Source: a virus (lineage: Duplodnaviria; Caudoviricetes). Taken from it: a DNA stretch of 64,000 bases. The stretch covers positions 96,001 through 160,000 of the IMG/VR virus record IMGVR_UViG_3300037067_019009; one strand, written 5' to 3'. A program made the translations under genes and the position numbers. Shown here piece after piece: positions 4,855 to 59,918 of the stretch; the stretch's first letter is position 1; every line of letters starts with the position of its first letter. The notes under the pieces were generated by a model. That model saw only the letters and a program-made list of their open reading frames with translations. It had not been told where the DNA came from and did not search any database.

Positions 4855-6519
4855 CTACTGTTTCATTGATAATTTATACAGTCTATTAGCCTGAATGGCC
4901 ATCAACGTATTACCATCGGCTACCAGTTGCATATCGGCGGAAAACGCCGGGTCTGAAAATCTTCTAGTTCCTGTGCTTCCCTTCCTCGAAGAGAATAGCA
5001 CAATGTCGGTTCCTTCTACCATCACTACAGCCACTCCGCTATCGAGTACAGCCATACTTATTCCAGTATAAGTTATATCCTCATGCTTTATAATGTCATA
5101 AGAGGAGTAGTCATTGGAAAACCGGAATATGAACATATCATATACGGATTGTTTTTCTCCAACCACAGCCAGAACTCCACGCTCGAACTTGGCATCAACT
5201 ACCTTATAGCCCTTCAGTTCAGGTATCTTGACATTATAGGTACATCCGGCCTTGGGTAAAATCGTAGCGAACCACATGCCCAAAGCATCTTGCATAGCCA
5301 CTCCATCAAACATAGTAGTAGACTTAGATGTCACGTTAGCAACCATCGTAGCCGCTGGGAATACACTTGGGTACAACTCCTTAAGTTCAATATGGAGTAG
5401 CTTATTACCCTGCTTAACATACACATCACCTCCGTAGCTGAACATATCATCCACATCAAGAATCATGGGTATTTCTCTCGGAGAATCGATGCCTGCCATT
5501 TTCAGCATGTCCTGCTTCCATACAGCCACACGCTTACCGGAGGTTGTCCTGGCTATATGGAAATCCCCGCCCCCAAACACCCTCTTTGCTCCACTATAAG
5601 TACCAGTCGAGGTGATGGCCAAACCACACCTATAGCTTATTATATTAGAGCTATACTCATGCACCAGCTCCATATTAATAAGCCCTGCGGTTACTATAGG
5701 CTTGCTTACAATCGTGGTAAATACGATAGCCTCTATGCCCTCCGGAGGAGGAATACGTTCTCCCCCTTCCAACACCCGCAGGTACCACTGAAAATACCCG
5801 GAAGGTATTACGTCAAATGGTTGACATACTGGCGGAACAGACACATCTTTGTTAAGGACCGATAGATTGGCCAGCATCCTTTCGTCTAAGCCACTTACTC
5901 TCGGATGGCTGCCTTTATAAGGATGTATCCCAGTGAACATCTGAAAGGATACTATCGCAAAAGAAAACCAATCGGTTCCTTCGTTGAATACACCTGGCTT
6001 AGAGTGCCTATCTCGCACACTCTCCATGAGCACAGGAGCCGCGTAATGTGGACACCCGTAAGAATCTACATCTATGAAATAAATGGTATCGAATTTTGAG
6101 CTGACAAGAAAGTTCATCTCATTTAAATCTACAAGGAGTATACTGCAGTCATGAATGCCTTGCACTCCGGTACGCTTGCGATGTACTAGTTTGTTAATTA
6201 TCTCCGGGGTGATACCATGCTTAGTCCTGAAAACTGCAGGAAACAATTTGCAGAGCGGGTAAGAATCCTTGATGTACCGCATAGTGTAGCCGATTGGCTC
6301 ACCACTGCCGCTGAGCAGAATATCTTCCGGCTTGATAACATCCGGGTTAGTAATCCTGGAAAGCTCCCTGATCTTGCCAACAGGAATCATCTTGCTTGGA
6401 TCATGATAGATTTTGTAAGCTTCAAACCCACGGACATATATCGAGCCTTCCCCACCAGTTGCAATAAAGTCATTCTGCGTTAGTGTGACTTTACTTTTAC
6501 CCTGCACGTATACATCCAT
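4855..6519 (-). CDS. Ser/Thr protein kinase of TerY-P triad type
   Basis: GGEGSIY glycine loop, KIY lysine, DLNEMNFLV catalytic loop, IDVDS, DWFSFA, GIHPY. Confidence 0.85.
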   Translation of the reverse strand: MDVYVQGKSKVTLTQNDFIATGGEGSIYVRGFEAYKIYHDPSKMIPVGKIRELSRITNPDVIKPEDILLSGSGEPIGYTMRYIKDSYPLCKLFPAVFRTKHGITPEIINKLVHRKRTGVQGIHDCSILLVDLNEMNFLVSSKFDTIYFIDVDSYGCPHYAAPVLMESVRDRHSKPGVFNEGTDWFSFAIVSFQMFTGIHPYKGSHPRVSGLDERMLANLSVLNKDVSVPPVCQPFDVIPSGYFQWYLRVLEGGERIPPPEGIEAIVFTTIVSKPIVTAGLINMELVHEYSSNIISYRCGLAITSTGTYSGAKRVFGGGDFHIARTTSGKRVAVWKQDMLKMAGIDSPREIPMILDVDDMFSYGGDVYVKQGNKLLHIELKELYPSVFPAATMVANVTSKSTTMFDGVAMQDALGMWFATILPKAGCTYNVKIPELKGYKVVDAKFERGVLAVVGEKQSVYDMFIFRFSNDYSSYDIIKHEDITYTGISMAVLDSGVAVVMVEGTDIVLFSSRKGSTGTRRFSDPAFSADMQLVADGNTLMAIQANRLYKLSMKQ

Positions 6520-8471: not shown

Positions 8472-10142
8472 TTATATGTTTCCCAAAGCGAATTGGGAAA
8501 TAAGATTTGGAGTAGCGGTATCAAACCCCACCAAATCTAGCATCCCAGAGTCATCCGGGTCTGCGATAGAGAACCCATTGCTTACCATCCCTACCACTAC
8601 GGATCTGGCGTTAGGGTTGATCTTCTTCCGGTACTCAGCGAGAGCCTGGGTGGGATGAATCTTTCCAGCCCAAGTCTCGCTATCCGTGTACACAACGAAT
8701 AAATCTATATTTAGATTGTTCTTTAATGCGTATAAAATAGGCAAAGAGCAATCTGTGCCACCGGCATCCAGTCCCTCTATATATTGGCATACGTCGCTTA
8801 TCCGTTGCTTACTACTGATATCAAGAGCAGAGACACTAGGAATACGACGATTAGTAGAGTCGGCTGTAAAACCTGTCACGACGACGTTCTTCTCAACAGC
8901 CTGGGTAACTAAAGCCATCGCAGCAGAACCAACTCTTGGAGTCAGTCCTGGGCAACCAGCAATGTTCACCCAAGTCATCGACGCAGATAAATCAAGAGCC
9001 AGCATTATATTTTTTCCGGTTGGCTCAACGTTTCCAAATGCAGTGTAGAATGCTCTATTGAGCGCGTCCACTACCTGTGTTACTGGCGTCCAGCTCCCAC
9101 TGCCCCTTACTCCCATCCCTGATCCGTATGTCAGAAGCGCCTTGAGTACATCTATAGGATGGACTCTACTCTTCCTGATCATCTCAACATCTGATAGCTT
9201 ATCTACCACGAAGTTGATAATGTCGAACTTCCCTGGAGCTAATAACCCACTCTTACTAAAGTTGCCCAGGTTCCTGAGTATTGCATGAAAAGGCATCTCC
9301 TGCAACAACTCCAGCTGCACATCCGGATCGCTCTTGAACTGAGAAGGTATGCACTCATGTGGAAGATTATAATCCTTAATTAAAGATATTATACCTTTCT
9401 TCCCGTCTTCAGTTTTAGCTTGCTCGAACGCGTAAATTATCTTAGCTGGAGTACCAGCAAACGTTTTTGCATCCAAGCCCTCGCGCACAACCCCGCGCTT
9501 CTTGTCTTCCCATCCATTAGTGCCATGTGTACACCACTGAAGGATGTTAGAGAAGAGATCGGAGTCCGCTTTAACATGAGATAGCCTGAGCAAATCTCTA
9601 TGGCTCCACCCATCACGCTGCTGGTACTTAGTAACTTGCAGTGACAAGGCACCGGCCGACTTACCTAAGTACCAATCCGCAACAGCGTTCTTCAGTAGGC
9701 GCCCCCATCCGCGAAGGTTAGTAACGTATTCAGCGAAGTGGAATAAGTGAGTTCCGATCCTGCAGACTTGGGGCAAAGCCGCAGCAGCTGCTTTCTTTGT
9801 TTCCACATCTCCAAAACTCATACACGCGGCGAGGGCGAAGATACAAGGGTCATTCTTTGGCGCTCGTCCAGCCTGAGAGATATCGACTATCTCTTTAACC
9901 AACTCGACGCCACTTGCCCTAATTACATTCTCCATAGCAGCAAAACTCTTCAGAGTCATATCTTTCTCTGTAGCATAATAGCTGCCACCCTCAGTGCCGA
10001 GGATCAAGAACCTCTTCACCTTCATCCACTCACTCACTTCGAATGAGTATCCCCCTGCCTGATTCTCCACCATCGACTTACCTGGAATAGGCTGGGTTTG
10101 CGGAGTTTTCTTTACAGACACATGCTTACTGTAGTTAGTCAT
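8472..10142 (-). CDS. rsr: Ro60/Rsr TROVE-domain RNA-binding protein with C-terminal vWA domain
   Basis: NQAGGYSF, RFLILGTEGGSYY, VCRIGTHLFHF, GWGR, KYQQRDGWSHRDLLRLSH, MIDAS DLSASM, GGTDCSLP, YTDSETW, GFD motifs. Confidence 0.95.
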   Translation of the reverse strand: MTNYSKHVSVKKTPQTQPIPGKSMVENQAGGYSFEVSEWMKVKRFLILGTEGGSYYATEKDMTLKSFAAMENVIRASGVELVKEIVDISQAGRAPKNDPCIFALAACMSFGDVETKKAAAAALPQVCRIGTHLFHFAEYVTNLRGWGRLLKNAVADWYLGKSAGALSLQVTKYQQRDGWSHRDLLRLSHVKADSDLFSNILQWCTHGTNGWEDKKRGVVREGLDAKTFAGTPAKIIYAFEQAKTEDGKKGIISLIKDYNLPHECIPSQFKSDPDVQLELLQEMPFHAILRNLGNFSKSGLLAPGKFDIINFVVDKLSDVEMIRKSRVHPIDVLKALLTYGSGMGVRGSGSWTPVTQVVDALNRAFYTAFGNVEPTGKNIMLALDLSASMTWVNIAGCPGLTPRVGSAAMALVTQAVEKNVVVTGFTADSTNRRIPSVSALDISSKQRISDVCQYIEGLDAGGTDCSLPILYALKNNLNIDLFVVYTDSETWAGKIHPTQALAEYRKKINPNARSVVVGMVSNGFSIADPDDSGMLDLVGFDTATPNLISQFALGNI

Positions 10143-23717: not shown

Positions 23718-24047
23718 CTAGCTTAACCCTAATCGCCTTATCACCAAAGTTACCACTTCTTCTTGTTGGGCCTCAAGAACCTTGTTTCTTGTAGACTCAT
23801 CAAGATCTTTTACTGTATCATATATCAGCGCAGCCTTCTTATCAACCTCATGAGAATGAATCTCATTACCCACCACTGAGACCGCGCTTTTAACATGGCC
23901 CAACGCTGAGGAGACAAACTCCTTAGTCTTTCCCTTAGCATCCCTCACTGCTTCAGGTAAGTCTATCTCCCTGGAAGTCTTTATCGCTTCGACACCATAC
24001 TTTGCCGCAGCAGCAAGCAGGGCTGTTCCCAGTAGAAAACTGAGCAT
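23718..24047 (-). CDS. hypothetical protein following the RNAP genes
   Basis: ORF with AAGGA RBS, hydrophobic N-terminus. Confidence 0.55.
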   Translation of the reverse strand: MLSFLLGTALLAAAAKYGVEAIKTSREIDLPEAVRDAKGKTKEFVSSALGHVKSAVSVVGNEIHSHEVDKKAALIYDTVKDLDESTRNKVLEAQQEEVVTLVIRRLGLS

Positions 24048-24063
24048 CTGTATTTCCTTTCTA

Positions 24064-26076
24064 TTAGAAGATCATACCTCTTAGCTCTTCCAATTCCTTC
24101 ACTACTTTATCTGGCGTTTGCCGAGTCTCCTCGGCACAGGATACCATCCCCTCTGCGTTCATCACACAGGTATCGATATACCCGATCCTGCGACCAGATG
24201 CCTTCATCCTGTTCGGGTCGGATAGTCGCTTTCCTATCTGGCCAACGATACCGCCCACCACATCCGGATCCTGCCGATGCCTGCCTACCCGTAGGTAGCC
24301 TGCTGGGAATCTCCCGAGAGCTTTGGCCTTAGGGCCTTCGTACCTTGTCCCCAACTCCGTCTTCAGGGAAACGTCTCTGTGCCAGGCATTCGACTCCAAG
24401 ATCTCACAAGTCAGGGTATCGTCCGAGTACCCATACTCCTGAGCTACGTTGACGATATCGGACTCTTTCAGTGGGGCATTGTGGTTGACCACCATTCCAC
24501 CGAGATCCTTGGCTATTTTATTCAGAGCCAGTGTTAATCCTATTAGCTTTAGGCTGCCATGCTTCTTAGCTGATGTAATATCGAACACCACATCAGCCTG
24601 CTGTATAGAGCCATCGCTCCACTTAACCCACGGCATTGCGTTATCCGGGAGTATGTTTGCCACTCCCTTGAACGCGTCTGCCTCTGACTGAAGTTTCATT
24701 CCGGTCGCCGGAAGTATCTCCTCTTTCCCGGCAAACTCCCGGTAGAGAATCTCCTCACCGACTGGCCGTGGAATTACCAACCTCTCTATCTCAGCCGACT
24801 CGTACCTATGAGAAGGTATTTGAGCCGGTATCACGGGCCAGGACTTAGATCTCGCAAGCCATCCAGTAAACCTCCGGTACCCATTGCTGCTTGCTGGACC
24901 ATACTTTAGATCCCATTCTATCTCGCTGGCTCCAGTGGCCATTGCCGCCTTTTTGCGGGCATTCAGATTCGAGGCCGAGGCTGCTAGCCACTCTTTCCAC
25001 AACCTTATTCTCGCTGCGGTCTTTTCATCCACTCTCGCCTTCACAAAGATGGATTCCTTAGGAGATCTCACCTGTAAAGACACTTCGTCGCCATCTCTGA
25101 CCATCCTGCTATTTCTGCCGCATGAGTGGATCCCTCCGCGGCAGTTCACTAGTCCATCTATGCCATGAGTATGTATAACCTCATGCTCAACTGTCAGTCT
25201 CTTGGCAGCTGACTCTGAGACGATTACTGAGTCATTCAAGACTCCCACAGGATTCCCTTCCGAGTCTATCCAGCTCATGCCGACGCAGATCAGATTTACC
25301 ATATCCGGATAGATATGGTTTCCTTCTACCTTCACCAGAGGCTCCTCCGCCCCAACGATCTTTCTCAGATGGGTCAGCCCTCTAGCTGTTTTCCATCTGG
25401 TTGGATTCAGTAGCCAAGCCAGTGGCTGAACCGAGACGTATATCGGATATCCGTATTCATCTACACAATCAGCAGACGTACCCGGATTGCCCGGCTGTGT
25501 CGCGCATAGTTTCGAGACGCTATTGTTCTCGAGGAACTGGAGGAATATCTTCCTCTGTGCTAGTAACACATCGTTCCTCATCACCCCGGGGATGAATGGG
25601 ACTTCAGTCTTGCTGTCCAAGATGATGGTCCTTCTCTGTGCCTCGGTCTCGAAGCGCGTCTCGACCTCATCCCAGGCTCCCTCCTCGGTATACATCTCCG
25701 AGAGGGTTCTATTCGCCAAAGCAGACAGTGCTCTAGCTCCTATCTCAGCCGGAAGCCTAACTATTCTTCCCAGTTCGGCTGGAGAATCTCTCTTTATTCG
25801 GAACATGAGATAATCTTCCAACGTTCCGAAGGCTCTTACAAGCGGATTAAAAATCTCTCCGGACTCATCTGGGACGAAAGTAACTGATACTGCCGGCCTG
25901 AATACCGGTGTAGACCCGGTCGGAAGTAGTATTCGCTCACCTATCACTGGGAGCTTGGTGACAATATCTCCCAGCATAGCGAACATCGACTCTCCCTCTC
26001 TTACGACTAACAACTCTTCCGACTTCTTAAACGAAGTCTCACTTGCGCCTGTTACACGTGTAATTACCTCATTCAT
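24064..26076 (-). CDS. divergent RNA polymerase beta-like subunit (DPBB-B)
   Basis: VNLICVGMSW..LNDSVIVSES (cf. RpoB NMRVAFMPW..FEDSILVSE); GMKLQSEADAFKGVANILPDNAMPW..DG..ADVVFD (cf. [32 protein letters not shown]); GYLRVGRHRQ..SGRRIGYIDTCVMNAEG (cf. GYMYMLKLNH..GGQRFGEMEVWALEAYG). Confidence 0.85.
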   Translation of the reverse strand: MNEVITRVTGASETSFKKSEELLVVREGESMFAMLGDIVTKLPVIGERILLPTGSTPVFRPAVSVTFVPDESGEIFNPLVRAFGTLEDYLMFRIKRDSPAELGRIVRLPAEIGARALSALANRTLSEMYTEEGAWDEVETRFETEAQRRTIILDSKTEVPFIPGVMRNDVLLAQRKIFLQFLENNSVSKLCATQPGNPGTSADCVDEYGYPIYVSVQPLAWLLNPTRWKTARGLTHLRKIVGAEEPLVKVEGNHIYPDMVNLICVGMSWIDSEGNPVGVLNDSVIVSESAAKRLTVEHEVIHTHGIDGLVNCRGGIHSCGRNSRMVRDGDEVSLQVRSPKESIFVKARVDEKTAARIRLWKEWLAASASNLNARKKAAMATGASEIEWDLKYGPASSNGYRRFTGWLARSKSWPVIPAQIPSHRYESAEIERLVIPRPVGEEILYREFAGKEEILPATGMKLQSEADAFKGVANILPDNAMPWVKWSDGSIQQADVVFDITSAKKHGSLKLIGLTLALNKIAKDLGGMVVNHNAPLKESDIVNVAQEYGYSDDTLTCEILESNAWHRDVSLKTELGTRYEGPKAKALGRFPAGYLRVGRHRQDPDVVGGIVGQIGKRLSDPNRMKASGRRIGYIDTCVMNAEGMVSCAEETRQTPDKVVKELEELRGMIF

Positions 26077-26080
26077 CCTA

Positions 26081-27451
26081 TCAACCCTCGCTAGCTATAA
26101 GTGTATTTTGAAACCACTCGGCCATAGTGGTTTCTTCCGGCACAGACTGCATGAATTCCCAAACCGGCGGGTTCATGCTATTTCCATGTAGAATTGCGAA
26201 CGCTAGATTATGGTTCGCTTTCTCTCTTATATCACCTCCCTCGAGTATCTCATACATCGCTCTAAAAGTCGCTGTATCCAGCCCCTGTTTAGACAGGCTG
26301 GACTCCACCTTTTCCCAGGAATATCCCGGGAGACCTCTGAGGAGTCCATACAACCCTCTTGGGTCAGACTGGTTATTGTGCTTTTTATCAAAGCACAGCT
26401 CAATCGCGGCCGTCATCGCCGATGACCATGATTGATAGTCGATGGGACAGTTCTCTATCATATCTATGACTGCGAACCCAGCATAGTATATGAGTGAGAG
26501 ATTCGAGATCCATAATTTCTGCTCTATGGCGTCTACCACCGAGCTCAGCGGATCGACTTGAAGGTCCTCATGATCTTTCCACGTCATGGCCTGCGGCGTA
26601 ACCGCCATGGGTTGTAAGTTACCCATGGCAACTATCTTATGCCAAGCCAATTCCGACTTGGCTTCCCTGCTCCTTGGAATTATTATTGAGGGGGTATCTC
26701 CATCACAGTCCCCCTCCACGAGATCCATCTGGCTCATTACCCTGTCCCCCATCTTGAATATAGATGGTGAGACGAAGATCACAAAGTCCTGGCCCGGAAC
26801 TTCCCGCACGGTGCATGACTTCGCTCCAGTAGTGGGCCATCTGGAGAATATACCATAATCTCCATCTCCCACTATATTTCTTCTCTTTATAGTGGAAGTT
26901 CTTCCATGCTCATCCACGAAGGTTATGGACTTTTTATTATTCATACGATCCATTACCTTAGTGGAGAGCCCGATCTCTCCCGGCTTAAGAGCAGAGAAAT
27001 CTCCACTCTTGAACCTGCCGTATTTAAAAGAGGAGTGGTTTATGTGTGGGATGGCCACTAGAGCTCCCGACACCGTAACCCTCAACCGGCCAACCTTCTC
27101 CTGCAGCGACTTGGCCACGGCAGCCTTATAAGCAGCCAGGAACCTCTTCATCCCGCGCTCAACAACCGTACGGTTGTTACTATGTACCCCTCGTACCACT
27201 TCATTCAGGGAGATTAGGATGGGAGTCAGAATTATATTCCCGCTGGAGTCTCTGCTAGCCCCCATCTTGATAGAAGGAGGAAGAACGATATGGTCTATCT
27301 TGTGGCCACCAGGAAAAACGCCACCCAGATCATAATCAAACTCCAAAGGAATACAAGTAGTAGTCTGGAAGGACTCTATAATGGTGTCCTTCAATGGAAA
27401 ACTCCGGCTGACCAAACCGGTTCCATCAAACAGTTCCAAAGGTCTTAACAT
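26081..27451 (-). CDS. divergent RNA polymerase beta'-like catalytic subunit (DPBB-A, DxDGD)
   Basis: IVLPPSIK (cf. PVLPPDLR); RVTVSGALVAIP..LKPGEIGLS (cf. RVDYSGRSVITV..LRLHQCGLP); IFSRWPT (cf. LLNRAPT); EGDCDGDTPSIIIPRSREAKSE (cf. [22 protein letters not shown]); catalytic DCDGD at 26696-26710. Confidence 0.88.
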   Translation of the reverse strand: MLRPLELFDGTGLVSRSFPLKDTIIESFQTTTCIPLEFDYDLGGVFPGGHKIDHIVLPPSIKMGASRDSSGNIILTPILISLNEVVRGVHSNNRTVVERGMKRFLAAYKAAVAKSLQEKVGRLRVTVSGALVAIPHINHSSFKYGRFKSGDFSALKPGEIGLSTKVMDRMNNKKSITFVDEHGRTSTIKRRNIVGDGDYGIFSRWPTTGAKSCTVREVPGQDFVIFVSPSIFKMGDRVMSQMDLVEGDCDGDTPSIIIPRSREAKSELAWHKIVAMGNLQPMAVTPQAMTWKDHEDLQVDPLSSVVDAIEQKLWISNLSLIYYAGFAVIDMIENCPIDYQSWSSAMTAAIELCFDKKHNNQSDPRGLYGLLRGLPGYSWEKVESSLSKQGLDTATFRAMYEILEGGDIREKANHNLAFAILHGNSMNPPVWEFMQSVPEETTMAEWFQNTLIASEG

Positions 27452-28089: not shown

Positions 28090-28755
28090 TTAAGAGTCCG
28101 TTCCAAAGCAGACCTCAAAGTCTGTTACCTTCGGCTCCTCTGGCCTGTTCGCCAGATAGGAAAGCAGATGCTCAAGCGCATGGTCACTGATATAGTGGTC
28201 ACTTACACGACCAACAGTAGTCGATAAGTAATGATCACTTACCAACCTCCCCCAATACACTTCTTTTGCGCTGGAGATCCAGGAAACAAAACGCCGCCCA
28301 CTAATAGACAGGAAATCCCCATCCTGATCTCGTCGTAGATCCTTAAGTATATCAGGCTTACATATAGCAAACACCGATCTTACTCTCCCAAGATGTACTG
28401 GTATCTCCACATGGGACTTATAATACCAATCCACTTCCTGATCTCTTTTCAGCCCATACTCTCGAGCATCCTGCACCCAAGGGTCTCCCTTAGGAAACAT
28501 TTTGAACTTACTATAAACCGAACTGCCCTCGAAACTCATTTTCAGTAACCGTTCCCAGAATGGAGGAACAAGTAAGGAACCCCGCCCCATACTATCTAGA
28601 ACGATATCTGCTAGTGATAGCAGGTATTTGTCACCACGACGTACATTGTCACATAGAGCAGGATCATCCCTGCTTTCCCACAGGTAACTTATTGCCTCAC
28701 AAAGAGGCATCATCTTAATTTCATTGGTAACAGAACTCTCCACTGATAGTTCCAT
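28090..28755 (-). CDS. hypothetical protein downstream of the repeat-rich region
   Basis: AGGAGG RBS, 221 aa. Confidence 0.65.
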   Translation of the reverse strand: MELSVESSVTNEIKMMPLCEAISYLWESRDDPALCDNVRRGDKYLLSLADIVLDSMGRGSLLVPPFWERLLKMSFEGSSVYSKFKMFPKGDPWVQDAREYGLKRDQEVDWYYKSHVEIPVHLGRVRSVFAICKPDILKDLRRDQDGDFLSISGRRFVSWISSAKEVYWGRLVSDHYLSTTVGRVSDHYISDHALEHLLSYLANRPEEPKVTDFEVCFGTDS

Positions 28756-29484: not shown

Positions 29485-30207
29485 TTAGGACTTTTTGCCT
29501 CCAGACTTGACCGTCTCCTTGGCGGTAGGCTTCTCGGTCGTCTCTCCCACCGCGGCGGGAGCAGTTGTCTTACTTTCTTCCGCCGTTCCAGCTTCAGTCG
29601 GAGCCTGATACGGCGTGTACGTTAGGCCGAGCCCTTCGTGGTCTATCGGCAGAGCGTAGGCGAAGTGTTCAGACGCCATCTTAGCCATAGAGCCCATTGA
29701 CAGACTCGCGATTGCTCGCGGGCCCGCTGCTCTCCTGACCACCGTGACTGTTTCCTGCGTGACCGGGTCTTTACGGTCCTCCGTCCACTCAGGCCACTCA
29801 GAGGTAGCTTTTACCCACCGCTCTCCTCCGGCATCGATGCGCTGCCCAGCCACTGAGGCGCCTCCCCCAGCTAGGAGAGTGATCCCATAGAAGGTGCCGA
29901 TCATCGGGAGTTGTATCGTTACTGATGCCGATCTTACTTCCCCATCATCGGCGGTGTTAACGTTGTAGAAGAGCTGTCCGAACACCTCCGCGTACATCTC
30001 CGTTCCGTCCACGTCCACCCGCATCAGGTGCTCTGGCCGAATGTTTTCCGGGGAATCCAGAAGAACTCTCTTGCCTTCCGAATCCCGCCTGCACATCTCC
30101 GCGTAGTGCGTAGACCTTTTTACAAGCCCTGCTTCAAACGCGGTGAGGCCGCTCCTTTTTAGCGACCCTTCCTCTGGCGCTACCGTCGTAGTTTTAATCT
30201 GTTGCAT
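29485..30207 (-). CDS. hypothetical protein with low-complexity A/E/K/T tail (possibly SpoVG/PC4-like nucleic-acid binding)
   Basis: GC-richer codons than neighbours; SASVTIQL..GTFYGITL; GAAAGGA RBS. Confidence 0.6.
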   Translation of the reverse strand: MQQIKTTTVAPEEGSLKRSGLTAFEAGLVKRSTHYAEMCRRDSEGKRVLLDSPENIRPEHLMRVDVDGTEMYAEVFGQLFYNVNTADDGEVRSASVTIQLPMIGTFYGITLLAGGGASVAGQRIDAGGERWVKATSEWPEWTEDRKDPVTQETVTVVRRAAGPRAIASLSMGSMAKMASEHFAYALPIDHEGLGLTYTPYQAPTEAGTAEESKTTAPAAVGETTEKPTAKETVKSGGKKS

Positions 30208-58247: not shown

Positions 58248-59918
58248 ATGAAGGATTTCGCAAACTTACCAGATTCCGAACTAGTAGCTCTCGCTGAGTT
58301 CATGGATAACCCCCAGCTCTGGATAGAGGCATGTCTTAGAAATCCACTGACGAACGAGCCTCTGAGATTCAACTATGTACAGAGAAAGTTTTTTTCTACA
58401 AAACGAAAAAACAAGGTACTCAGGATACATAGGAGAGCTGGTAAAAGTTGGCTGTTGGCCTCTTATGCTATATGGTATGCGTTTACTCATGCTAGCAGAC
58501 AGGTGATGATAATTTGCCCGGACTCTAGTAAAGTGGAAACTATCTTCAATGCCATAGATGATTTCATCAGGGTCTCCCCTGGAATAGCTCAGTCCGTACA
58601 TGAGCGGCAGAAGACTCCCGCAAGAAGGAAGTTTACTAATGGTTCGCTTATAGCAGGATTCACTACTGGGGCCAGATCTAACTCTAAGGGTGAGTCTGTA
58701 AGAAGTAAGTCGGCTGATGTGGTGATAATAGATGAAGCCGCTTATCTCAGGGAAGAGGATTGGGCGGCCATACTACCCATTATGACGGGTGATTCGGAGC
58801 GAGTAGGGAAAGTAATCTGTTTGATAAGTTCTACTCCGACGTCTGAGCGTGGGCACTACTATATGTATTGCACCAAAGACTTTTCTGATATTAAGGAGTC
58901 TCAGCGTTGGGATCAGATACACGTATCTGTTTTTGATAATCCTGATTTTGATGAAGATGCTCGGGCAACGATAAGGGCCATGCACACTGAAGAGGAGCTT
59001 CGTCAGGAGTGGGAAGCCGAATTCCCTGACGTTGGAGAAGGAGTATTCAAGCGCAGTTATATTGATCGGGCGGGTAGGGCGTTTTACTATTACGATGCCG
59101 ATAAACAGGAAACTATACCTAAGACTGCCATAAGGACTATGGGAGTAGATTGGGATAAGGTGCAGGCTGGACCTAATATAGTAGTACTGGAATTGGATCC
59201 CAAAGCCGAGTTTTATAGAGTTTGTTACCGAGAAGAAATCCCTAGGACCGAGTATTCTCTTACCATTGCGGTAGAGAGGATAATCGAGTTAAACACAATA
59301 TTCAATCCCTCGTATATCTACGTGGATAGAGGGTATGCTGAACAGGCTGTAGAAACATTGCACCTGCACGGGGCTAAGCACCCGGATACCGGACTCGCTA
59401 AAAAAGTGCGTGGGGTGTCGTTTTCTGAAAACGTGGAGGTTATGGATCCATTTACCGGTGAGGCCGTGAAGAAAAGGATAAAGCCCTACATGGTCAATAT
59501 TCTGGTAAAGTGGTTCGAAGACAATAGCATTGTTTATCCGGCCTCTGATAAGCAGTTCATCACACAACTAGAAGAGTTCAAAGTAGTGCGCACAACCGAT
59601 AATCATATTACTTACTCTTCAGTTAATGAACACATAATAGATGCTTGTATGTTAGCTGCTTATGCGATGCATGAAAACTACACTGACCCATTTAGATTTA
59701 CTCCCGCGGAAGACTCCTATCTAATGCCGATACCCGATGTGGTTCCACCTGCCGTGGGAGAGGCGCAGGGGAGAGCCATATTCGGGCCCATAATGGATCG
59801 GGCTTACCGGGCAGAAAGTTTTACTACGAGAAAGCTTCCTATCGGGTATGGTAGGGGGTTTACCAGAGATGCGGATGCTCAGCACGGCACGGACCTTCCA
59901 ACAAGAAGTAGTTTCTAG
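58248..59918 (+). CDS. terL: large terminase subunit
   Basis: Q-motif, Walker A RRAGKS, Walker B VVIIDEAAY, ISSTP motif III, RQEWEAEF, nuclease MGVDWD..YVDRG..EHIIDA. Confidence 0.93.
   Translation: MKDFANLPDSELVALAEFMDNPQLWIEACLRNPLTNEPLRFNYVQRKFFSTKRKNKVLRIHRRAGKSWLLASYAIWYAFTHASRQVMIICPDSSKVETIFNAIDDFIRVSPGIAQSVHERQKTPARRKFTNGSLIAGFTTGARSNSKGESVRSKSADVVIIDEAAYLREEDWAAILPIMTGDSERVGKVICLISSTPTSERGHYYMYCTKDFSDIKESQRWDQIHVSVFDNPDFDEDARATIRAMHTEEELRQEWEAEFPDVGEGVFKRSYIDRAGRAFYYYDADKQETIPKTAIRTMGVDWDKVQAGPNIVVLELDPKAEFYRVCYREEIPRTEYSLTIAVERIIELNTIFNPSYIYVDRGYAEQAVETLHLHGAKHPDTGLAKKVRGVSFSENVEVMDPFTGEAVKKRIKPYMVNILVKWFEDNSIVYPASDKQFITQLEEFKVVRTTDNHITYSSVNEHIIDACMLAAYAMHENYTDPFRFTPAEDSYLMPIPDVVPPAVGEAQGRAIFGPIMDRAYRAESFTTRKLPIGYGRGFTRDADAQHGTDLPTRSSF

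Follow-up and report, generated by a model that had tools for sequence, protein, structure and literature searches.

Gene pair and conserved motifs

We analysed a 64,000-nucleotide stretch of viral DNA (the window; positions 96,001 to 160,000 of IMG/VR record IMGVR_UViG_3300037067_019009), in which two adjacent minus-strand open reading frames (ORFs) encode a beta'-like protein, P0001, and a beta-like protein, P0002, resembling the two large subunits of RNA polymerase (RNAP; Table 1). The window belongs to a single 212,668-bp IMG/VR record (G000), 84% complete according to CheckV. An earlier note, made from the letters of the window, had proposed a compact and highly divergent two-subunit double-psi beta-barrel (DPBB) polymerase at this locus, with genes 4 bp apart in the order beta' then beta, a series of RpoC-like and RpoB-like motifs, and a total of about 1,130 amino acids (aa) against about 2,750 aa for the Escherichia coli subunits. 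Reading of the ORFs bore out the gene order and the TAGG gap, the combined length is 1,126 aa, and the motifs are all present and conserved among homologues. A GAGGG ribosome-binding site lies within the 3' end of the beta'-like gene and, together with the 4-bp gap, suggests that translation of the two proteins is coupled. The GC content is higher over the beta-like gene (0.515 at window positions 24001-26000) than in the flanks (0.43-0.48).

Table 1. Features of the gene pair, its surroundings and the phage genome (window positions unless another sequence is named)
Feature	Position	Strand	Basis or remark
Beta'-like gene (P0001, 456 aa)	26081..27451	-	ORF; clamp-like N-terminal region, DPBB at about aa 125-272, C-terminal helices
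S-R204-W-P206, universal R-x-P of beta'-type barrel	26834..26842	-	R204 and P206 invariant (18/18); within predicted interface
E-G-D248-C-D250-G-D252, metal-binding Asp triad	26696..26710	-	D248 and D250 18/18; D252 17/18
Helix aa 301-331, candidate bridge helix	26459..26551	-	DSSP on model; invariant Q311-K312
Junction P0001/P0002	26077..26080	-	TGA-TAGG-ATG, 4 bp (sequence read)
Beta-like gene (P0002, 670 aa)	24064..26076	-	ORF; barrel at about aa 238-602, interrupted by inserts
L-N-D282-SVIVSESAAKR, 'ED' motif of beta barrel	25198..25239	-	D282 in 22/25 homologues
Insert of about 150 aa, P0002 aa ~297-445	24742..25188	-	Mostly long helical hairpin after ED-type motif; alignment A8 and model
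K461...K470, NTP-site lysine pair (GMKLQSEADAFKG)	24667..24696	-	Both in 24/24 aligned homologues
240-aa ORF	29485..30207	-	BLASTP E 7.5e-7 to L011:7732-8337, upstream of the pair there; no Pfam or PHROG match
RNase H-DUF488 fusion gene, 273 aa	30429..31250	-	Pfam RNase_H E 1e-11, DUF488-N3a E 5e-10
554-aa ORF	4855..6519	-	Weak protein-kinase match (E 3e-4)
Ro60-like RNA-binding protein	8472..10142	-	phrog_850, E 6e-71
Terminase large subunit	58248..59918	+	Nearest Moorella phage MTATph1 (35%), Bacillus phage 0305phi8-36 (28%)
Probable sigma-like ORF, 317 aa	G000 87624..88577 (L005:15624-16577)	-	Sub-threshold Sigma70_r2 E 0.022 and Sigma70_r3 E 0.0013, in the correct order
2101-aa ORF, tail region	G000 175843..182148 (L008:843-7148)	+	Cas4/PD-(D/E)xK-like nuclease domain at aa 1269-1396, E 6e-19
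Candidate promoter motif (A)CTTGCCTATAATA	39731; G000 16799, 17502, 172011, 182171, 199755	+	
Candidate promoter motif (A)CTTGCCTATAATA	G000 86653, 66838	-	

Two-barrel RNAPs share eight invariant residues, namely R-x-P and DxDxD in one barrel and an Asp and two Lys in the other (PMC2919709). All eight are found in the pair, as R204, P206, D248, D250 and D252 of P0001 and as D282, K461 and K470 of P0002, with conservation counted over family alignments of 18 rows (beta'-like) and 26 rows (beta-like). The catalytic residues are retained across lineages that share a mutual identity of 18-49%. In the 'ED' motif of P0002 the universal Asp is kept and the preceding Glu is replaced by Asn; D282 aligns with LEDAIVISESAAKKL of chain 7s00_C of the AR9 non-virion RNAP (nvRNAP). 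Further motifs of P0002 are G-M-K461-LQSEADAF-K470-G, which holds both lysines of the nucleoside triphosphate (NTP) site, MP..DG..ADVVFD, VGRHRQ and SGRRIG. The NADFDGD of cellular beta' is absent, its place being taken by EGDCDGD in P0001 and by xGGDxDGD in the single-chain relatives described below.

Relatives and natural fusions

Neither protein matched a Pfam family, even at E <= 10, or a PHROG family, and tblastn of both proteins and of two single-chain relatives against 50,697 GenBank phage records gave no match. A word-indexed search of 5.8 billion proteins retrieved three homologues per protein, to which a profile query added none, and an exhaustive hidden Markov model (HMM) search with the beta-like profile against 1.84 billion cluster representatives retrieved 29 proteins, all of them metagenomic and phage-like in every context examined. 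A related-locus search with profile A2 yielded nothing beyond the relative already known. Among PDB sequences, the top match of profile A2 was AR9 nvRNAP chain 7s00_C (E 0.06), over the ED and K..K motifs, and profile A1 matched nothing; the Rpb2_6 profile appeared below threshold in two relatives only (E 0.014 and 0.034).

In eight further contigs (L011, L012/L013, L016, L017, L018, L022 and L023) the two genes are again adjacent, often overlapping, with the beta'-like gene upstream, and at least nine independent contigs retain this layout. The beta'-like and beta-like proteins measure 458 and 698 aa in L011, 442 and 693 aa in L012/L013, 535 and 710 aa in L016, 466 and 632 aa in L017, and 446 and 641 aa in L018; among the very divergent pairs, they measure 507 and 713 aa in L023, and L022 combines a partial beta'-like protein with a beta-like protein of 648 aa. 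In one sub-clade a conserved family of about 220-240 aa is encoded directly upstream of the pair (L016:1920-2642, L017:3831-4493 and L018:205-879); by hhalign it is unrelated to the window ORF at 29485 or to its L011 counterpart.

Ten relatives (931-1045 aa) are single chains with the beta'-like module N-terminal, the beta-like module C-terminal and nothing else large, in which residues ~150-490 match the beta'-like profile A3 (E 1e-10 to 2e-23) and residues ~480-1000 match the beta-like family. Judged from their layout, these natural fusions indicate that the modules act jointly and require little besides; since nothing but the two modules is joined in chains of about 930-1045 aa, the pair probably constitutes a complete core. 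A maximum-likelihood tree computed from the beta-like part has one branch (96/95) that parts fused from split forms, and places the most divergent of the split forms in neither group. It is most simply read as one fusion event in an ancestral gene pair, but the tree is unrooted with several long branches, and the change may have been fusion or fission. The insert of P0002 occurs in split forms and is absent from the fused relatives (alignment A8). It is located where cellular beta bears the flap and in the model comprises helices 339-380 and 397-409, with low confidence at 314-342; it matches only generic helical hairpins (Z ~6).

The extreme divergence, rarity and lack of any family match would suit a decayed or non-catalytic relic, for instance a structural or regulatory protein that has retained the fold, but we regard such a relic as barely credible, since all catalytic residues are kept across the divergent lineages, both reading frames are intact and coupled, and the gene arrangement recurs in independent contigs.

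Predicted folds

The AlphaFold2 model of P0002 (mean predicted local distance difference test score, pLDDT, 77.7) places a reduced N-terminal region first and helices that contact the beta'-like chain last. Foldseek ranked bacterial beta on top (E 1e-13, template modelling (TM) score by query 0.40-0.46), and VIA-align superposed the model on Rpb2 with Z 23.2 over 377 aa at 3.6 A. Model residues 19-610 span Rpb2 89-1061, and P0002 is therefore predicted to be a reduced but end-to-end beta rather than just a C-terminal half of the phiKZ/AR9 type. Comparison with 48,161 representative chains gave exactly nine clusters at Z >= 8, all of them RNAP second-largest subunits: plastid, bacterial, Pol I, Pol III, Pol IV, African swine fever virus (ASFV), vaccinia, AR9 (7s00_C) and phiKZ (7ogp_C). 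The next structural score was 6.1, for the helical hairpin alone. AR9 7s00_C aligned with Z 19.2 and 21% identity over 217 aligned residues, within model residues 205-609, and residues 257-600 aligned to designed DPBBs (Z 5.0-5.1). A feature search of the ESM Atlas gave no usable match for P0002, whose own model in the Atlas is poor (pLDDT 0.35).

For P0001 (mean pLDDT 80.9), the top structural matches were Rpb1, A190, archaeal A' and beta' (Foldseek E 4e-6). VIA-align gave Z 12.9 over 401 aa at 5.9 A for Rpb1 and Z 12.1 over model residues 1-330 for archaeal A', and residues 125-272 matched isolated DPBBs with Z 8.5-9.6 and a root-mean-square deviation of 2.3-2.5 A. The best match in the ESM Atlas was a viral beta' family of about 1006 aa with Rpb1_2 and Rpb1_5, for which 408 residues aligned across 1-456 (TM 0.66 by query). 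Because this alignment spans the whole of P0001, its C-terminal helices appear to correspond to parts of the latter half of beta'.

The models thus agree with the proposed compact two-subunit DPBB polymerase in matching the largest and second-largest RNAP subunits, and the motifs of the pair are not a product of chance, given the conserved residues and two models that are topped only by RNAP large subunits. On two points they depart from the earlier note, which had likened the beta'-like C-terminus to single-chain YonO/QDE-1-type enzymes and recognized no bridge helix. The predicted folds appear closer to beta and beta' of multisubunit RNAPs than to the YonO/QDE-1 class, and the absence of a bridge helix is doubtful: a 31-residue helix of P0001 (301-331) directly follows the barrel, carries an invariant Q311-K312 and is predicted to contact the beta-like chain through residues 301-326, which suggests that it is probably a bridge-helix-like element. 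A second helix, 339-358, terminates in the conserved E351..D355-K-K357-H358; that it acts as a trigger-like element is speculation.

Several observations would suit a split member of the YonO/QDE-1/crAss single-chain class, possibly RNA-dependent. The enzyme is small, has no Zn ribbon and carries Asn for Glu before D282, as do YonO and the RNA-dependent RNA polymerases (RdRPs) (PMC2919709); Pfam RdRP is weakly matched by one of the fused relatives (E 0.0097); the terminase is nearest to those of 0305phi8-36-like phages, bearers of the YonO-like gp99; and P0001 residues 78-448 align with QDE-1 (Z 8.0), RDR2 (Z 8.1) and P23-45 gp96 (Z 8.0). These last scores are at the level of isolated barrels, however, and at Z >= 8 P0002 matches only multisubunit-type beta chains, with no QDE-1, gp66 or P23-45 chain among the matches listed. 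The barrel order is moreover reversed, hhalign against YonO gave a probability below 1%, and hmmsearch found no significant match to YonO or gp99. We therefore hold membership of this class to be very improbable.

In the RNAPs of phiKZ and AR9, the catalytic part comes as four fragments (beta-N, beta-C, beta'-N and beta'-C) accompanied by a fifth subunit, and two paralogous sets are usual. The pair could accordingly be the beta'-N and beta-C pieces of such an enzyme, with beta-N, beta'-C and a specificity subunit encoded elsewhere in this incompletely recovered jumbo-phage genome; the top PDB sequence match is the 665-aa AR9 chain 7s00_C, which also superposes well on P0002, and the AR9 and phiKZ beta'-N chains align with P0001 1-288. 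Against this stand the single-chain relatives, which hold just the two modules, and the extent of both models: residues ~13-205 of P0002 superpose on the N-terminal part of Rpb2/beta, a separate subunit in phiKZ/AR9, and P0001 1-456 superposes on full-length beta' including the Rpb1_5 part. The rest of G000 likewise offers no partner. It holds no paralogue of the pair, no second RNAP set, no T7-type RNAP and no YonO-like gene (tblastn and phmmer with YonO found nothing); its six-frame translation has no Rpb2_6 match at E <= 10; and family HMMs, a DxDxD scan, PHROGs on the 38 large ORFs and Pfam on unassigned ORFs revealed no further RNAP part. Unassigned ORFs of 440-770 aa contain NHL repeats, ankyrin, a weak kinase match or no domain. 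A split enzyme of the phiKZ/AR9 type thus seems quite improbable, if slightly less so than a YonO-class one.

Predicted heterodimer

The complex of P0001 1-456 with P0002 130-670 was predicted from the proteins' own family alignments in three runs and with three controls. The interaction score ipSAE was 0.85 in the three runs and 0.00 for the best of the three controls, the mark used being attained by 58 of 80 solved complexes and by 2 of 110 mismatched pairs. The runs share at least 90% of contacts, and pLDDT of the partners is 70-74. The predicted interface comprises residues 203-206 and 248-251 of P0001 and residues 266-283, 457-461 and 470-472 of P0002, the last two segments lying beside the Asp triad, and the C-terminal helices of P0002 (627-670) pack onto P0001. 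In these models the catalytic residues of both barrels face each other across what would be one joint active site. The favourable score may partly reflect resemblance to solved RNAPs, and it shows likeness rather than proof of binding; independent support for the association comes from the natural fusions.

Genomic setting

G000 encodes a terminase, portal, major head protein, tail sheath, baseplate, family-A DNA polymerase, helicases, GroEL, a UvsX-like recombinase and NrdD, and is therefore assigned to a jumbo myovirus. Bacillus phage 0305phi8-36, to whose group the phage is distantly related by its terminase, carries the YonO-like gp99 (1218 aa), and G000 has no YonO-like gene; related phages thus seem to use different two-barrel polymerases. 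The polymerase pair sits in a minus-strand block of replication and nucleotide-metabolism genes, apart from the virion module. Elsewhere in the window lie genes for a Ro60-like RNA-binding protein and a possible protein kinase (Table 1).

The neighbouring ORFs at 23718, 28090 and 29485, previously suggested as accessory subunits, found no support in that role: no homologue or family was found for the first, the second has no homologue, and the third is only weakly conserved in one relative. Two motifs were considered and set aside for want of supporting context, RRDQDGD in ORF 28090-28755 as an RNAP motif and DFDAD at aa 549 of the 2101-aa tail-region ORF as a sign of a virion RNAP; the latter ORF bears a nuclease-like domain (Table 1). 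No alpha or omega subunit was found among the PHROG and Pfam matches of the large ORFs, in which no dedicated search for them was made.

The 317-aa ORF of Table 1 is probably a divergent phage sigma factor, to judge from its profile matches, and has a homologue in a related 217-kb jumbo phage, G001 (E 2e-5). A TATAAT-containing motif, ACTTGCCTATAATA, stands ahead of eight or nine gene blocks in G000. As (A)CTTGCCTATAATA it recurs in intergenic gaps 6-64 bp before gene blocks, has no -35 element and is a candidate phage-specific promoter. The motif, also written TGCCTATAAT, was considered as a promoter of the new polymerase; it is absent from G001, and no tie to the enzyme can be drawn.

Proposed function

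We consider it likely that P0001 (beta'-like) and P0002 (beta-like) together make up a miniature two-barrel nucleotide polymerase, a heterodimer encoded by an uncultured jumbo myovirus. One DPBB would come from each protein, and the barrels would pack face to face to form a single active site, to which the beta'-like barrel would give the Mg-binding D248/D250/D252 with R204/P206, and the beta-like barrel D282 with the NTP-binding K461/K470. The C-terminal helices of the beta'-like protein would probably form the bridge helix and possibly a rudimentary trigger element, those of the beta-like protein would clamp onto the beta'-like chain, and the enzyme appears to require no alpha-like or omega-like subunit and no further beta/beta' fragment. 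Both the retained catalytic residues and the predicted fold favour an enzyme that is active as a template-dependent nucleotide polymerase. As the pair lies in the replication block away from the virion module, its synthesis probably follows infection, with the programme having to be started by host RNAP; the enzyme would then be produced from the replication, early-middle gene block and would most likely serve as the phage's own DNA-dependent RNAP for part of the transcription programme. With a little less assurance than for the polymerase itself, we infer that this role as a dedicated phage transcriptase is the more probable one. The middle/late transcriptase proposed in the earlier note, and any set of genes that the enzyme would transcribe, are likewise inferences.

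The enzyme might instead act mainly in replication, as a primase-like RNAP making primers or origin transcripts that a linked RNase H would remove, rather than as the general middle/late transcriptase. RNase H homologues lie near the polymerase in the window, L011, L012 and L014, and directly upstream of the fused polymerase in L014; the pair shares a strand block with replication rather than virion genes; and primase profiles were without match both in G000 (Toprim_2, Toprim_4, DNAG_N, AEP and Prim-Pol) and in the 93% complete G001 (AEP and Toprim_4). Both phages encode their own DNA polymerase and helicases. The sigma-like ORF and the TATAAT-type motifs, for their part, point to host RNAP as a possible source of much of the transcription. 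The RNase H adjacency is loose, however, at one to six genes off and on either side, primases may be too divergent for Pfam or be supplied by the host, and G000 is incomplete. The characterized phage two-barrel enzymes (YonO, phiKZ/AR9, crAss gp66 and P23-45 gp64/gp96) are transcriptases (PMC5467207, PMC7598289, PMC10770324). Short-primer and processive synthesis are not distinguishable from the present data, and we judge a mainly replicative role to be unlikely, although the least so of the alternatives considered here.

Several points weigh against a two-subunit phage transcriptase. The AlphaFold2 models derive from shallow family alignments (18 and 26 rows). The Asn of NADFDGD is not kept, so that the sequence is no guide to sugar selectivity, and RNA rather than DNA as the product, as well as DNA as the template, are taken from family resemblance. 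The sigma-like ORF and the TATAAT-containing motifs imply that host RNAP may transcribe many phage genes, and the recurrent RNase H neighbour and the lack of a detected primase fit a priming role equally well. Finally, a further subunit in the missing part of G000 is possible.

A broader proposal, which we put forward as possible rather than probable, is that the family forms a family-level lineage of mini-polymerases derived from multisubunit RNAPs, in which a beta'/beta heterodimer of about 125 kDa is the whole enzyme and the fused descendants, confined to one clade, reverse the known single-chain barrel order. Such an enzyme may join transcription with replication priming, as suggested by the linked RNase H in a genome where no primase was detected, and may be directed by the phage sigma-like protein through the hairpin that replaces the flap.

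Comparison with known RNA polymerases

The core common to cellular RNAPs amounts to about 400 kDa, and it has long been asked what part of it is indispensable. One minimal solution is seen in the YonO, QDE-1 and crAss enzymes, in which a single chain carries the beta-like barrel ahead of the beta'-like one. The new family would be a second, independent minimal solution that still resembles beta plus beta', and could serve to test the dispensability of the bridge helix, flap, clamp and alpha platform, the origin of subunit fusion, and the question of reduced multisubunit RNAPs versus early offshoots. It would also offer a small, host-independent and probably rifampicin-insensitive polymerase as a possible tool, and broadens the transcription (or priming) strategies of a jumbo-phage group known only from metagenomes.

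With multisubunit RNAPs the pair shares two catalytic subunits of one barrel each, the same eight invariant residues and the best structural matches. It differs in having about 40% of their size (1,126 versus ~2,750 aa), in the lack of any Pfam-profile match, in the beta'-then-beta order, in a helical hairpin in place of the sandwich-barrel hybrid motif (SBHM) flap, and in the absence of Zn-binding elements from its sequence. The mReC RNAPs, full-length multisubunit versions encoded by phages, were found by COG0085/0086 profiles and keep NADFDG (PMC7481178); as the Pfam Rpb2/Rpb1 profiles, the counterpart of the COG criterion, are silent and the motif is EGDCDGD, the pair is probably not of this group.

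Like the enzymes of phiKZ and AR9 (PDB 7OGP, 7S00), the pair would be a highly divergent jumbo-phage non-virion RNAP whose own sequence lacks a sigma-type Pfam signature, and its closest solved chain by sequence is 7s00_C; unlike them, it comprises two genes in one set, has fused single-chain relatives and matches no PHROG. With YonO, gp99, QDE-1, crAss gp66 and P23-45 it shares the character of a phage-borne minimal enzyme of about 100 kDa, built of two barrels and a few helices with few of the domains of multisubunit RNAPs. The barrel order differs, being beta-like then beta'-like in that class and beta'-like first in the new family. The connector of QDE-1, gp66 and P23-45 runs from DPBB-B to DPBB-A (PMC10770324), and the Asp motif lies at 535 of 839 in YonO (DNDGD) and at 573 of 1218 in gp99 (DTDGD), whereas it comes first in the new family. 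P0002, moreover, resembles beta of multisubunit RNAPs and not the DPBB-B context, and most members of the new family are two polypeptides.

Helicobacter RpoBC is a natural beta-beta' fusion, and yeast killer-plasmid Orf6 a natural Rpb2::Rpb1 one. The latter has 982 aa (PMC2919709), and the new fused relatives are likewise single chains of about 1000 aa from subunits like those of multisubunit RNAPs; they run beta' then beta, in contrast to beta then beta' in Orf6 and RpoBC, to which they have no detectable sequence relationship.

The structure matches would place the family, of the two clades proposed in PMC10770324, in that of multisubunit-type enzymes and their fused derivatives. The proposal of a distinct lineage holds for the described phage groups compared, the pair falling outside phiKZ/AR9, YonO and gp99 by sequence and outside mReC by the Pfam counterpart, with crAss gp66 not directly compared. 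The family is rare and undescribed, although one of the 23 published two-barrel families (PMC10770324) may already cover it. Among the RNAPs of the two-barrel superfamily it represents a new architecture, in which a miniature heterodimer of beta' and beta exists beside relatives fused in that order, and it is probably one of the smallest enzymes of the beta/beta' type.

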